DNA of 61,321 nt. Origin: a bacterium. Its GTDB lineage: Bacteria > Hydrothermota > 32-111. A program made the position numbers. The first letter of the stretch is position 1. Each line of letters starts with the position of its first letter. The stretch spans positions 1 through 61,321 of the forward strand of contig JBFXGO010000009.1 of the NCBI GenBank assembly GCA_050239825.1, given 5' to 3'. Positions 36,001 through 42,000 of the stretch are shown here, in pieces.

Positions 36001-39000
36001 GCCCGGAAAATAATGGGGCGCTTTTGTTGCCGGTGGAGTATATGCTGTTGCAGTTGATTTATACAGTTTCCCCTGCTTCTCTCCGGGAACCAAGACTGAA
36101 TAGTAGTATGGGGCTGGTATTGCCTGATAGGGCTCCATACCGTCAACAGAGTAATCAGGGTTTGTTCCCGAGGGATAAACAAATACATAGGGAGGACAGA
36201 AATTCGAATTTGAATCAGTAATGATTGTGTCATACCCTGTATAGGTGGTTCCTCCGTCATAGGACATTGAATTGTTGAAATACATGTTTAAAAAATACTT
36301 ATCATTGACAGTCAAAAAATGGGCAACATTGTTTCCCTCAATGTAAAGACAGCCTCCGTTTTCAAGGTAGCCGCGTAAATTGCTTAAGTCAGTGGGCGTC
36401 ATTATCTCGTCAGTATAGAGTCTTGGCCCGCAGACGACAAAAACAGCCGCATAATCAACAAGGTCCTTCCAACTCGGAAGGGTGGTTGATACCCTGAGAT
36501 TTTTCTTCAATGTATCTTCAAAACCAAGTTTGTATAAGGACTTTTTCAGATTTGCCTCATATCCGATGAACAACTCCAAGTTGTCCGGATTTCTAAATGT
36601 GGCTCCCTTGTCATCATCCCAAATGAGGATATTGACATTCTCATAGTGTTGTGCTCCGACAAGCATTGCGCCTATCAGAACCAAAAGTAAAATCGCTTTT
36701 TTCATAATTCCTCCGCTTTTATATAACCATAATTTTTTCATCTTATAAATACAAAAGTTTATTAGCAATTATCATACCTATTATATTATTTAAATACTTG
36801 TAAAATACAACTTTATATTTTTAGTTCAAACAAAAAGAGAAGCAGTCCGTGCAAAATTTGCGCTATATTCCCCTTACTTCTATTCTGTCTGAAAATTGGG
36901 ATAGAATATCTCTGAATTTTCTCAATTCCTCGGGTCTATATGGTTTTAATGTCTGAAATTCAGGATTTAAAGTCTTTTGCTGTCTGAATTGCTGCAAGGC
37001 TACTCTTTTTGCTCCGTTTATTAAGGAGCCTATCTCCCTTATGTCGTCTGAGGTTACTATTTCCGGCACTACTGTTGTGCGGAATTCATAATCTATTTCC
37101 GAGTTCATTATCAACTCTATAGACCTCTTTATATTTTCCTCCTGCACTGCAACTCCGGCGGCGATGAAATACTTTTTAATTGATGTCTTCACATCCATTG
37201 CTATATAATCAACATTTCCCGATTCTATAACTCTCTTTAAAAGGTCCGGATTGTAGCCGTTTGTATCTATTTTTATTGCCTTTCCGGAAATCCTTTTCAA
37301 CTCCGACATGAAATCGATTATCTCTTTAAATAAAAGAGGTTCGCCTCCTGTGATGCATACCCCCTCAATAAAATTACGCCTGCGGGATAATTCCGAAAAG
37401 ACCCACTCCTCATCTAATTCTTTTGTAGAATCGTTAAGAAGCTCGGGATTGTGACAAAAGGGACATTTGAAATTACATCCGCCCAAAAAAATTGTTGCTG
37501 CAACTTTATCAGGATAATCAAGAAGGGTCACTCCCTGAAAACCCCTAATACTGATATTTTTCAAAAAATATTTCCTATACTTTGAATTCTTTCCTGTCCT
37601 TGAACTCCTCTTTTTTTCCCTCATTCCAGTTGTTGACAGGCCTGAAATAACCGACAACTCTGCTGTAAATTTCTGTTGGAACCCGCTTTACCTTGATTAC
37701 ATGCTTTTTTTGCACTTCCTCAAATACTTGCACTTTCTCCATTTTATTCTCCTTTTTCTATATAAGTTTCAATTCCGAATTTCTCCAAATCCTCCTGCGA
37801 ATGGTCATACGGGCAGTATTTGTGCTCTCCGGGAATATACCCGTGTACCGGACATATTGAAAATGTCGGAGTAATTGTAAAGTAAGGAAGATGAAAATTT
37901 TCAGCTATCTTCTTCACAAGATTCTTGCATGCTTCAATAGAATAGACCCTCTCTCCCAAGAAACCGTGAAGCACTGTTCCTCCTGTATATTGACACTGAA
38001 GTTCATCCTGGAGGGTGAGAGCCTCAAATAAATCATCCGTGAATCCGACCGGCAGTTGAGTCGAATTTGTATAGTATGGAACATCTCCTCCTGCAGTGAT
38101 TATTTTCGGGAAACTCTCTTTGTCTTTTTTTGCGAGACGGTATGATGTTCCTTCCGCCGGAGAGGCTTCAAGATTATAAAGATTGTTCGACTCTTTTGTA
38201 TATTCCGATAAAATGCTCTTCATAAACTTCAATGTTTCAAGAGCAAATTCTCTGCCCTTCTCATGACCGATATTCTCTTTTACCAGCATTAGAGACGCCT
38301 CATTCATTCCTATAAGCCCTATTGTTGAAAAGTGATGAGACCAATATTTTCCGTTCGTCTCTTTTATTTCGCTTAGGTAGTGCTTTGCGTATGGATATAG
38401 ACCGTCTTCAGTGAATCTTTCAAGGACCTTTCTTTTCACCTCCAGAGATTCTTTTGCTATATCCATCTGTTTTTTGAGTCGGGTCAGAAACTGACCTTTA
38501 TCTTCGCTTTGAAATGCTATTCTTGGAAGATTTATTGTCACGACTCCGATTGAACCTGTCATAGGATTTGCGCCGAAAAGACCGCCACTTCTCAGTGCCG
38601 GAGTGTGATCTTCCTGCTGCTCCTGAGGTTCTCCTTTTGCAAGCAGATTCAACTGAATATTGTTCGAATGCTCTTTAAGCTGGCGATTGTCAAGACGGAG
38701 CCTGCAGCACATGGATCTTGCATCAGAAGGATCCATATCTGAATTGATGAAATTGCTGAAATAGGGTATGCCGTATTTAGAAGTCATTTCCCATATTTTA
38801 TCATGCGTCGGGTTGTTCCAGTCAAAATCCTTTGTTATGTTGTATGTGGGGATTGGGAATGTAAATATTCTTCCCTTCGAGTCTCCCTCCATCATCACCT
38901 CTGCGAATGCAGTGTTGAAGATGTCCATCTCTCTCTGAAATTCTTTGTAGGTCTCGATTCTCCGCTCCCCGCCTATTAGAACTCGGGTATCACGGAATGA

Positions 39001-42000
39001 TTGGGGGCACACAAGGTCCATTGTGACATTTGTGAATGGAGTCTGGAATCCCACTCTTGTAGGCACATTGACATTGAAAATAAACTCCTGCATGGCTTGT
39101 TTTACATCATCGTATGTGAGTTCGTCAAACCTGATGAATGGAGCCAGATATGTGTCAAAATTAGAGAATGCCTGCGCTCCGGCAGACTCACCCTGAAGAG
39201 TGTAAAAGAAATTCACTATCTGCCCCAATGCCGTTCTGAAATGCTTCGGCGGCTTGCTCTCAATTTTTCCGGTTACTCCGCCGAGTCCCTTTGTCAGAAG
39301 AAGTTCAATGTCCCAACCACAGCAGTAAACTGAAAGCATTCCAAGGTCATGTATGTGCAGATCCGCCTCTTTATGGGCATTTGCGACTTCTTTTGAATAT
39401 ATTTTTTCAAGCCAGTATTGCGATGAAATTGCAGAGGATATGTGATTATTCAGGCCCTGAAGAGAGTATGACATATTTGAATTTTCATTAACTCTCCAGT
39501 CGCTCTTCTCAATGTAGTCATCCATCAAAGATATTCCGTCTTTCAGCAGGTCCTTTGTATTTCTCAGTTGTGAGTGCTGGTCGCGGTAGAGTATGTATGC
39601 TTTCGCTGTCTTTGCGTAACCGCCCTCAATAAGCATTTTTTCAACCAAGTCCTGCACATTCTCTACTGTAGGCACCCTTCCGTCTTTATATATGACCTCA
39701 AGAACCGCCTCCACCTGATTGGTTATTTTCTTTGCAAGTTCAAGGTCATCCCCTCCGACCGCTTTTGCGGCTTTGTAGATTGCCATGGAAATTTTGTTTT
39801 CATCGAAACTTTCTACTCTGCCGTCTCTCTTTCTGATTTGCACAATCTTTGACACTCACTCCTCCGACTTTTTTAGAAATTTAAAAAACAACTAAAAATA
39901 TCTTATTCATTAAAGAGAGAATGTCAAGACCGAACACTATATTTAGTGTTTTTTTATTTTCCAAAAGCACAATAGGTTGAAAAATAACTTAACTTAATCT
40001 ACTTATTCACCTTACAAAAATCTCGCTTGTTTTAAAACCATATTCAGGTTCAATCTCTACAACTTCCGTAATTGACGATAAATCCGATACATACATTTTC
40101 CCCACATTTGTCGAGAATATCACCTTATCATTTACTCTCTCTACATCAGAGGGTGATGATATTTCAATTGTATCAATTATTGACAAATCCTCTGAAGATA
40201 ATATATACGCATTCTCCATAGCATCAAGAACTATGACAAATCCGTCAATGCATTTCACTTTTCCAAGAAAAGAATTGAAATTCGTTTTGTGAATTATGCT
40301 GTCATTTGATATTTTAATGATGCTTCCGTCTATGGAATTGTAATCCCCTACGCAGGAGACAAAAATATCCTTATTATCCGATATGTCAATATATGATGGA
40401 TTCGAGCCTGACTTTATCTCTCTCTTTTCCCAAGTGTCTGTATTCACCTTATAAATTGAAGCTGTTTCGGAAACATTATTGCTTCCTATATATATAATAT
40501 TTCCATCTCTCACTATCTCCTGAGGAGCGGCAAGCCCTGTGATTGTTTTGACTGTTTTGAGGGACTCTTTCTCCATCACTATAACTGAATTATCGAGCCA
40601 TAGTGATAAATAAATATTTTCATCATCATCTTCGAGATATCCGGGAGATGTCATTTCTCCTGTTGTTTTTTCAAGAATCAAATCTCCGGTAAGAGAGAAT
40701 TTTTGAACTGATGCATTTCCTCCGTAACCTGAATTTGAAATGAATATATTATTATCATCAACAATAATATCAGAAGGTCCGTCTCCTGCAAGTAAAAGAG
40801 GTTCAGTCGTGGAAAGAAGAGTAGAATCCATAACATAGACCGCCTCTGCATACCAGTCAAGAATATAAATTCCGCTGTTTCGCACTTCATTGTGGATTGA
40901 ACATGAATAAATGCCTGCTGTTATCAGCACTACAATTAAGATTTTATTTTTCATAATTCCGCCTTTAGTGTGAGTTTTATATTTCTTCCTTCAATATAGT
41001 ATCCGTTAACTGATTCAAAGCTCATATCAAGTGGGTTTTCCACAGAGAGAACCAATCTTAATATACTCCAATTTATTCCAATTCCCGCATTCTGAAAATA
41101 AACTTTCTGATTTATCTTTTTCGTATTTGCACTTGACAGATATGAATCACTTGTATAATTCACATTCAATTCAAAGAAAATTTTTCTATAGAGCAGGGTT
41201 ACGGAAAAATTATCCGCGAAGACGGGGGAATACGGAACCATTTTGAAATTATCAGCAATATTGGGCGAAAGGGAGAAGATGTTGCTGGCCTTCACAAATC
41301 CGTTTTCATACTCTGCTGAAAAAATTAAATAAGGATTGCTGACATTCTCTATATTCATTGGAGTATATTTGCCTTCGGCAGAAACCCATTTGATTATTGA
41401 AGTGTAATAATTGAATCCGCAGTCCGTGGTCATTATCAAATTACTCGTTTTCCTCTTTAAATTAATGAATACTCCATTAACGACTTCATTATTCAGATTT
41501 TCATTTCCTTTTGCAAAGGCATCTTCAATCCAGTAAAGTTCATTGAATGTCGGACGCCTTACTGATGTTTTGAATCCATAATCTAACCTCATCTCCTTTA
41601 AATGAAAATATGAAGATGAGTTGATTGAATAAACAAAATTTGTATTCTCTGACTCTGCAACGGCTGCGAACACATCAAATGCGAATCTATCTGCTTTTGT
41701 CGACAAACCCGCAGAAGGAAAAAATTCAAATGCTTTTTTTATCTTTGTTCCCTCTGCTGAATTGATCTGATTGCTTATTGTCAGATTTCCCAACTCATTA
41801 TAATAAGAAATGCCTGATAATATTGAATTGAAGAATGACGAATCCCGTGCAGGAGTGGACAATTCATCATTAAAATAAAAATAGGAGCTTTTTGTAATTG
41901 AGTTTACAAATTTCATTTTGTCATTGAATTTGATTGTTCCCGTGAGAATCACAAGAGAGTTTTTTATTCTGCTTGTTTTATATCTGTATCCTTCAATTCC

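Follow-up and report, generated by a model that had tools for sequence, protein, structure and literature searches.

The window we analysed, a 61,321-nucleotide stretch of a draft genome (67 contigs, 98.97% complete), holds the one NrdD body and the one small glycyl-radical gene of that genome. Read along the minus strand, the ORFs follow one another as nrdD-large, which encodes a 703-aa class III ribonucleotide reductase (RNR) catalytic body (37744..39855), a TAA stop, one base, a 55-aa ORF for a small glycyl-radical subunit (37575..37742), and the activase gene nrdG (36863..37564, start uncertain). The large chain ends in IETYIEKGE at its TAA (37746-37744), a single A (37743) separates that stop from the ATG of the small gene (37742), and the small gene lies in the +1 frame relative to nrdD-large in this genome. 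The junction (37743..37752) also contains a GGAG Shine-Dalgarno sequence at 37752-37749, within the 3′ end of nrdD-large and 6 nt upstream of the small gene's ATG. An earlier note on this DNA had described NrdD as encoded by just such a pair, a body and an RVxGY protein with its own Shine-Dalgarno sequence 1 nt apart, and the ORFs and the junction bear this out. The longest nrdG ORF begins within the small gene, at 37657, but the TIGR02495 match begins only at residue 37; we therefore place the start downstream, probably at a TTG (37564, our preference, with AGGA 8 nt upstream) or possibly at an ATG (37624). The product is an NrdG2-type radical-SAM activase (TIGR02495, 211.8 bits against a cut-off of 131.15; also PF04055).

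The large protein matches the ATP-cone model PF03477 and positions 1-530 of the 562 in the NRDD model PF13597 (E 1.3e-181), and scores 1015.8 bits against NF006126 (cut-off 548). Its ATP-cone occupies residues 6-95 and is followed by the barrel, with the MCCR finger loop at 382-385. We took conserved positions from an alignment of 58 NrdD bodies that lack a radical domain: M382, C383, C384 and R385 are invariant, and C668, H671, C681 and H685 are conserved ligand-type residues that form a predicted Cys2His2-type zinc site. The chain stops 18 residues past the last predicted zinc ligand, and the glycyl-radical loop is absent from it. Two features that mark a protein as NrdD are in place, an RNR/GRE barrel with a finger-loop cysteine and, in the adjoining gene, the cognate radical-SAM activase NrdG, but a further one, an RVxGY loop on the same polypeptide, is not: model positions 533-562 sit on the separate 55-aa ORF. 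This division of the NRDD model had been given in the earlier note; Pfam reproduces it exactly, and NCBIfam agrees.

The 55-aa protein matches positions 533-562 of PF13597 with 37.6 bits (cut-off 26.2) and aligns to positions 650-682 of the 684 in NF006126. It contains no cysteine, and its variable, Lys/Glu-rich N-terminal third is followed by VPTEIYSRVVGYFRPVNNWNEGKKEEFKDRKEFKV, which carries the glycyl-radical loop RVVGY with G31 (codon 37652-37650) as the presumed radical glycine. Across 51 small proteins E24, S27, R28, V30, G31, Y32, R34, P35, W39, N40, G42, F47 and R50 are invariant, and purifying selection acts strongly on the last 36 codons (median dN/dS 0.037, taken over the 28 of 91 family pairs with usable synonymous divergence). 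Among Pfam models (E up to 0.01) only PF13597 was found on this protein, with neither Gly_radical (PF01228, IPR011140) nor GrcA, and NCBIfam returned NrdD models only; a profile of the small-protein alignment matched no solved structure at E up to 0.01.

Upstream of nrdD-large, 39900..39949 on the minus strand is a likely control region for the operon. Our search with a 16-position NrdR-box pattern found one palindrome of 16 bp, ACACTAAATATAGTGT at 39934-39949, which resembles an NrdR box; 6 nt downstream of it comes a promoter-like site, with TTGACA at 39927-39922 and TAAGAT ending at 39900. A gene for NrdR itself is found elsewhere in the genome (196 bits, cut-off 124.65). No match to PF02867 or PF00268 was found in this genome, PF02867 is found in 0 of the 14 genomes of the family, and no class I or II RNR was detected in any of the 14. 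The two-piece NrdD is the only detectable RNR of this bacterium, and its function is needed, since it is the sole NrdD in a genome of this completeness, PF02867 and PF00268 are lacking, and the small gene's dN/dS is so low.

The sequences show two genes with separate signals for initiation, a split that is conserved, a small gene under purifying selection and no further RNR that could be detected. The explanation that we hold to be very probable is a two-gene NrdD whose body and small subunit are made separately, dock non-covalently, are activated by NrdG and work together as a class III RNR. The 703-aa protein would supply the ATP-cone, the zinc site and a barrel of ten strands whose finger loop hosts the thiyl radical, and the 55-aa protein the glycyl-radical loop and C-terminal tail only. 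The latter would be translated independently from its own Shine-Dalgarno sequence and ATG at the large gene's stop, an overlap that should give translational coupling and near-equal synthesis of the two. In the predicted complex a strand of the small protein (residues 21-27) pairs with the strand of the large protein that precedes the zinc site, and the Gly31 loop would enter the barrel as in one-chain NrdD; NrdG would then take a hydrogen from Gly31, readying the two-piece enzyme for catalysis.

Models of the complex gave ipSAE values of 0.84, 0.84 and 0.82, the best of three controls giving 0.00, and so passed their controls. Among solved complexes 116 of 157 reach the mark applied to this score, among mismatched pairs 2 of 215. 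The runs had at least 94% of contacts in common, with a partner pLDDT of at least 73. The model may perhaps pass through likeness to solved one-chain NrdD structures (8P23, 9D3X, 4COI, 4U3E, 1H78), and we read it as showing likeness rather than binding. We also considered a split intein joining the two chains and rejected it: there is too little room (18 residues after the zinc site in the large chain, about 20 ahead of the loop strand in the small chain), and neither protein has an intein match in Pfam.

With one-chain NrdD (phage T4, 1H78/1H79; Thermotoga maritima, 4COI/4U3E; Prevotella copri, 8P23; models NF006126 and TIGR02487) the system has in common the ATP-cone, the barrel, the double-cysteine MCCR loop, a predicted zinc site ahead of the radical domain, the RVxGY...WNxGK...R loop and tail, and an adjoining NrdG2 activase. 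It differs in that loop and tail are a separate 55-aa product, and in that the predicted zinc ligands run Cys-His-Cys-His rather than as the usual four cysteines, many fused relatives having CxxH...CxxC. As a small free-standing radical-loop protein with a variable N-terminus, the 55-aa product resembles GrcA/YfiD of E. coli and Y06I (vs.6) of phage T4, and the likeness extends to presumed activation by the parent's activase, docking into a loop-less body and the existence of viral copies (described in parts of PMC13450708, PMC8683613 and PMC1524935). It is NrdD-type rather than PFL-type by sequence, however, and about half the size of YfiD (14.3 kDa in the relevant part of PMC8683613). Unlike the partner of GrcA, the body here is loop-less by gene and not by oxygen cleavage, so the small protein would be obligatory rather than a back-up, and no full-length parent is present in this genome; such coexistence occurs in Paceibacterota and Minisyncoccales (loci L062 and L048).

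Two other RNRs also divide the work between chains. The class II NrdJa/NrdJb of Pseudomonas aeruginosa is an RNR chain made as two required polypeptides, the C-terminal piece contributing a function to the larger one's active site, but it is B12-dependent, and NrdJb performs dithiol exchange and carries no radical (Crona et al. 2015, as set out in part of PMC4520616). Conservation and the lack of another RNR suggest that both NrdD gene products are likewise required here. In class I RNR the stable radical sits on a separate, smaller subunit that docks to the catalytic one (stated in part of PMC9669993), but that subunit is ferritin-like, with a metal/tyrosyl radical and long-range transfer, whereas the glycine of the 55-aa peptide is predicted to sit directly against the finger-loop cysteine.

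The earlier note had tied the split to a few families of the phylum; it is present there, but that scope proved too small. In a collection of 5.8 billion proteins, the radical domain is absent from 104 of the 120 NrdD bodies closest to ours (judged by matching a regular expression to each protein's final 75 residues, a count of bodies and not of partner genes), and by this sequence measure the loop-less body is the majority form among these relatives; it occurs in several phyla. We found 309 small homologues of 30-97 aa. Among 1.84 billion representatives, the 150 best of 3226 matches are all 42-148 aa long; in 39 sequences retrieved, the first residue is M in 36, V in 2 and E in 1. Small partner genes are present in Spirochaetota, Thermodesulfobacteriota, Chloroflexota, Aquificota and others, and 31 of 80 loci from species-representative genomes, that of the cultured Thermodesulfatator autotrophicus S606 among them, pair a short radical gene with a body lacking the domain. 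A Lentisphaeria locus (L073), where the regular expression matches in three short frames and the ORF picture is messy, was left out of our conclusions.

This distribution bears on a further possibility, which adds to the two-protein explanation and is compatible with it: the small protein may be a consumable part that binds the body and leaves it again in repeated cycles. When O2 cleaves the chain at the radical glycine, a fresh copy of this 5-10-kDa module would take its place and be charged by NrdG, sparing a long-lived 703-aa body, with extra copies in Fe-S, sulfur or oxidative-stress operons replenishing the pool and viral copies sustaining host dNTP synthesis. We regard this as somewhat doubtful, the evidence for exchange after oxygen damage being circumstantial. 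In its favour, 13 of the 15 genomes of one genus (g17) have at least two small genes for one body, and extra copies are unlinked to it, lying between two rhodanese genes, behind Rrf2, HD and 4Fe-4S genes, or in an operon with Rrf2, a Cys-Met PLP enzyme, NifS-like and IscU genes; a Smithellaceae small gene adjoins rubrerythrin. At the Paceibacterota and Minisyncoccales (CPR) loci a free 94-97-aa radical domain stands beside a full-length fused NrdD, in the Paceibacterota case between nrdD and nrdG. Of 80 loci from an IMG/VR scan with the small-protein alignment, viral by the database's label, 74 carry a small gene and no NrdD body is found within 3 kb of it, a parallel to T4 Y06I for pyruvate formate-lyase; a tblastn search of INPHARED phage records with the 55-aa query came up empty at E 1e-5. 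GrcA offers a precedent, and whether spare parts exist beyond pyruvate formate-lyase was posed as an open question in 2021 and 2026 (in part of PMC8683613 and in section 5.3 of PMC13450708). Against it, the present genome has a single small gene coupled 1:1 to its body, with no sign of surplus; genomic context is weak evidence on regulation, the viral assignment depends on the IMG/VR label, a tight strand-paired interface might not exchange, and gene fission can be neutral.

Programmed recoding, by a +1 frameshift or stop read-through, would instead yield an ordinary one-chain NrdD. The earlier note had left a frameshift open, and the window itself offers something for it: the +1 frame is open from five codons ahead of the ATG (KKENKM), and an A-AAA-G run precedes the stop with GGAG nearby, so that a +1 slip there would open a fused frame, an arrangement that to us loosely recalls the prfB frameshift site. 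Rfam has no element over 36500-40300 at E up to 1, neither a known recoding element nor a riboswitch. In all 14 loci of the family AAAGGAG and the ATG are kept, while frame offset and stop codon vary: four genera have the small gene in the +1 frame (TAAaATG, TAGaATG, TGAtATG, TGAaATG), in a fifth it follows TAA or TAG immediately and without a change of frame, and each of the three stop codons is thus used to end nrdD-large. Other families have spacers of 8 to 26 nt that contain several stops, each small gene with its own GGAG and start codon, and in one (f33) the two genes are on separate contigs: the small gene follows an SPFH/Band-7 gene, and next to the 1103-aa large gene (model match to position 540) there is neither small gene nor nrdG. 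The constant feature is a start codon preceded, at initiation distance, by a GGAG, and no one mechanism suits a +1 offset, an in-frame stop, three stop codons and unlinked genes. With frames and stop codons that differ, spacers as long as 26 nt and, in one family, unlinked genes, recoding is largely excluded and very improbable, on the strength of the relatives rather than of this genome's own sequence.

The same relatives speak to how the split is kept. The radical motif lies in an open frame of 55-98 aa in 14 of 14 family genomes, extending the 11 of 11 from which an assembly slip had been dismissed before. Of 201 genomes sampled across the phylum, 43 have it in short frames (49-128 aa) and 27 at the end of NrdD-length frames, 24 of these frames being 629-758 aa and three shorter (209, 419 and 507 aa, of which two run into a contig end); a further 51 show nothing but weak matches, in other frames of 257-935 aa that presumably belong to other glycyl-radical enzymes, and in 80 no match was found. 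That the split is an artefact of assembly or sequencing, or that a one-chain nrdD has recently decayed into a pseudogene, has a negligible chance of being right: single-base errors do occur in drafts of 67 contigs, but the split recurs in 14 independently assembled family genomes and hundreds of database entries, the small gene is under purifying selection, the two-piece NrdD is the sole RNR found, and the split form has about 40 linker residues more than its fused relatives, which is no point change.

The two-gene NrdD that we favour would not be the first system with a stand-alone glycyl-radical protein, as the earlier note had it, since GrcA/YfiD and T4 Y06I are known; what holds of that claim is that none appears to have been reported for an RNR. 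The relevant part of a 2026 review knows spare parts for formate lyases only, and the literature searched, a scope outside which subscription-only papers and RNRdb lay, mentions neither a split NrdD nor a spare part for an RNR. Both a stand-alone glycyl-radical protein for an RNR and a class III body fully without the loop therefore appear to be unreported. The form is easy to miss because large RNR phylogenies filter by length (400-1100 residues in the methods of PMC9531940) and annotation pipelines name the 55-aa product as the full enzyme or as "hypothetical".

Docking and undocking of the radical domain have been proposed from cryo-EM of the P. copri enzyme (in part of PMC11226230). If body and loop are separate molecules in entire lineages, these steps become measurable association and dissociation, the activase substrate may be a 6.6-kDa peptide handy for mechanistic work, and the question of spare parts beyond pyruvate formate-lyase becomes directly testable; cultured non-pathogens such as Thermodesulfatator autotrophicus have the system. 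Were the small protein indeed exchanged as a consumable, spare parts would exist outside pyruvate formate-lyase, and class III RNR, like class I, would be shown able to function with the radical on a separate subunit.

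The class III ribonucleotide reductase (RNR) of the window is encoded by two genes on the minus strand. The first (37744..39855) encodes a 703-aa NrdD body that lacks the glycyl-radical loop and ends in ...CPYDHSQEDLEKFGIETYIEKGE, followed by TAA; one base past that stop, in the +1 frame, an ATG at 37742 opens the gene for a 55-aa radical subunit (37575..37742), and the window sequence places a GGAG six bases upstream of this ATG. In Pfam the NRDD profile is divided between the two proteins, with positions 1-530 of 562 on the large one, which also has an ATP-cone, and 533-562 on the small one; the NCBIfam model of full-length NrdD (NF006126) gives the large protein 1015.8 bits and aligns its positions 650-682 of 684 with the small one. 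The latter, MEKVQVFEEVQKKHVIKVKRVPTEIYSRVVGYFRPVNNWNEGKKEEFKDRKEFKV, contains the RVxGY radical loop and a WNxGK tail and is cysteine-free. The reading frames, the junction and the division of both profile models bear out the earlier note's claim of a two-gene NrdD whose parts lie 1 nt apart in different frames, the second with its own Shine-Dalgarno.

The gene after the small one encodes a NrdG2-type activase (TIGR02495, 211.8 bits; cut-off 131.15). The longest nrdG ORF would begin inside the small gene, but because the HMM match opens at residue 37, a TTG at 37564 with AGGA ahead of it is the likelier start. Upstream of nrdD lies a promoter-like site (TTGACA/TAAGAT, 39900-39927) and, 6 nt further upstream, a 16-bp palindrome, ACACTAAATATAGTGT (39934-39949), resembling an NrdR box; the window has no second one when up to two mismatches are allowed, and an NrdR gene is found elsewhere in the genome, on contig C40.

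This two-gene NrdD is the sole RNR detectable in the genome, which is 98.97% complete and contains one NrdD and no match to PF02867 (the class I/II catalytic family) or PF00268 (the class I small subunit); PF02867 is likewise absent from all 14 family genomes searched. That the two-gene enzyme is the only RNR found argues that it works. The split is also kept across the family, as the earlier note had proposed: 14 of 14 genomes carry the radical motif in an open frame just 55-98 aa long, and the 36 codons at the 3' end of the small gene have a median dN/dS of 0.037 (28 of 91 family pairs usable). Reading the junctions revealed that the initiation site is conserved and that the arrangement around it varies. 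In four genera of the family the small gene is in the +1 frame after TAA, TAG or TGA plus one base, and in a fifth it is in frame, its ATG immediately past TAA or TAG. In a sister family 8-14 bases separate stop from ATG, and in genus g17 of the same phylum the two genes are 15-26 bases apart, the small one starting at TTG or GTG behind an AAGGAG of its own. In another family of the phylum, f33, body and small gene are unlinked, on separate contigs: the small gene is downstream of NfeD and SPFH/Band-7 genes, and the body, a 1103-aa ORF with an NRDD match ending at position 540 and a weak intein match, lies between genes for a ZIP transporter and an Mrp/NUBPL protein and lacks a neighbouring nrdG. 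Since frames, stops and spacers differ so among relatives, no single programmed frameshift or read-through event could fuse all the junction types seen; the earlier note had left a programmed frameshift possible, and the variable junctions and unlinked f33 genes speak against it. We are confident that the two-gene class III RNR of the window is genuine and conserved.

In an alignment of 58 bodies without a radical domain, the finger loop with its double cysteine (M382-C383-C384-R385) is conserved, as are four residues of zinc-ligand type (C668, H671, C681 and H685), and in an alignment of 51 small proteins E24, S27, R28, V30, G31 (the presumed radical glycine), Y32, R34, P35, W39, N40, G42, F47 and R50 are. 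Complexes predicted from these two alignments scored 0.84, 0.84 and 0.82, versus 0.00 for the best of three controls, and pass a mark attained by 116 of 157 solved complexes versus 2 of 215 mismatched pairs; contact agreement among runs was at least 94% and the partner's pLDDT at least 73. The best-defined modelled contacts, which surround the zinc site, join residues 21-27 of the small protein to 664-668 and 677-681 of the large one; the loop region is predicted to touch large-protein residues 126-129, 329-335, 566-572 and 588-609, and the last residues of the large protein (689-702) also contact the modelled partner. Because structures of one-chain NrdD exist (8P23, 9D3X, 4COI, 4U3E, 1H78), the pass may mirror likeness to these, and it does not demonstrate binding.

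The arrangement extends well beyond the family. Among 201 genomes sampled from the phylum, the motif occurs in short frames in 43, at the end of NrdD-length frames in 27 and as weak matches in other frames only in 51, and 80 have none. A collection of 5.8 billion proteins yielded 309 small-protein homologues (30-97 aa) from sources that include WOR-3, TA06, Spirochaetota and Margulisiibacteriota, some on contigs longer than 100 kb. When the same collection was searched with the body's C-terminal half, scoring the radical loop in the last 75 residues, 104 of the 120 best clusters lacked the loop and 16 were fused; their sources include WOR-3, TA06, a Firmicutes MAG, Chloroflexi, Spirochaetes and an archaeon. 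Among 1.84 billion representatives there were 3226 matches, the best 150 of which are all 42-148 aa long; the 39 mini-proteins fetched begin with M (36), V (2) or E (1). Three database mini-proteins (P0121, P0122 and P0141) carry the radical motif twice in tandem together with a repeated stretch, and are probably assembly chimeras rather than true duplications.

A pattern scan of species-representative genomes gave at least 600 stretches, and we sorted the best 80 loci, which were picked by likeness to the small proteins, so that the class counts are not frequencies among all NrdDs: 31 have a short radical gene adjoining a body without the domain, 36 are fused only, 6 show the short gene alone, the body being absent from the locus (in two of them little DNA lies upstream), 2 have a fused gene plus an extra short one, 3 have no motif by regular expression and 2 are cut. 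Carriers of the pair include Leptospirales and other Spirochaetota MAGs, Hippea, Aquificales, Anaerolineae, a Patescibacteria MAG, Lentisphaeria, Verrucomicrobia and Thermoguttaceae and, within Thermodesulfobacteriota, Caldimicrobium, a Thermodesulfobacterium MAG and the cultured isolate Thermodesulfatator autotrophicus S606. Two domain-less bodies contain large insertions, which are probably inteins within split nrdD genes: one of 1103 aa (L045 4099-7410; G129:C8), in which the NRDD HMM is interrupted at position 157 and there is a weak Intein_splicing match, and one of 1075 aa from a Thermodesulfobacterium MAG (L051 266-3493). A Lentisphaeria chromosome has several short 'MAKCGEKTEVYSRVCGY'-type frames within 7 kb (L073) and a further one elsewhere on the same 5-Mb record (L124); the disturbed-looking ORFs around them possibly stem from long-read errors.

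For the origin of the split, we built a FastTree phylogeny of 148 NrdD bodies (108 domain-less and 40 fused, the radical part trimmed from fused rows), leaving out fragments below 640 aa and proteins above 760 aa. It requires at least four state changes, three of them forced by well-supported branches, versus about 35 for label shuffles; one clade spans five phyla and holds 94 rows, 93 domain-less and one fused, and two smaller domain-less clades lie elsewhere. Because the changes are so few and so many rows fall in one clade, we infer that the split is old, inherited or transferred within one large lineage. It also arose, or was reversed, on a few further occasions, in a direction unreadable from this quick, unrooted tree. 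A few fused NrdDs (P0363, L115 and L028, the last being G190:C28) have the Cys-His-Cys-His zinc-site variant and EELxxYG linker of the split clade, and one of them nests within it; such proteins represent either a re-fusion or the ancestral form.

Split RNRs of other classes are known. Phage Aeh1 has a split class I NrdA. In class II the split enzyme is NrdJa/NrdJb, which is described as a unique case for a free-living organism (PMC4520616). Free-standing glycyl-radical proteins are known for pyruvate formate-lyase only, as Andorfer et al. (2021; PMC8683613) also state. No description of a split NrdD turned up in the literature searched, which lay outside subscription journals and RNRdb. By sequence the window's small protein is outside the GrcA family, but it plausibly acts as GrcA does, except that it would be obligatory.

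In a more tentative reading, possible but in our view short of probable, the small protein would be a replaceable cartridge: a module supplied separately from the body and exchanged after oxygen damage. Of 15 g17 genomes, 13 carry at least two small genes, and one carries three, versus one body. The operon copy follows the order body, small gene, nrdG, and the extra copies (L034 5971-6153, L037 5950-6123, L042 5968-6150 and L044 2020-2253) are unlinked, their contexts including a place between rhodanese and metallo-beta-lactamase-rhodanese genes, an operon of Rrf2, Cys-Met PLP enzyme, NifS-like and IscU genes, and a position downstream of Rrf2, HD and 4Fe-4S protein genes. An extra g17 copy also adjoins a PD-(D/E)XK nuclease gene on a 3-kb contig. 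Free radical domains occur elsewhere too: one of 107 aa adjoins rubrerythrin in a Smithellaceae MAG, and domains of 94-97 aa lie near a full-length fused NrdD, which is the GrcA situation proper, in a Paceibacterota MAG (L062 3653-3937, with its own zinc ribbon, between nrdD and nrdG) and a Minisyncoccales MAG (L048, a 97-aa open frame). In IMG/VR, 477 stretches were confirmed, and among the best 80 loci (L126-L205, on putative viral contigs) the motif is in frames of at most 150 aa in 75, with an NrdD-body-like frame within 3 kb in just 6. The extra copies, free domains and IMG/VR loci are circumstantial evidence that fits a separately supplied module; the window's own genome holds just one small gene, closely coupled to the body. 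The cartridge reading is directly testable in cultured carriers.
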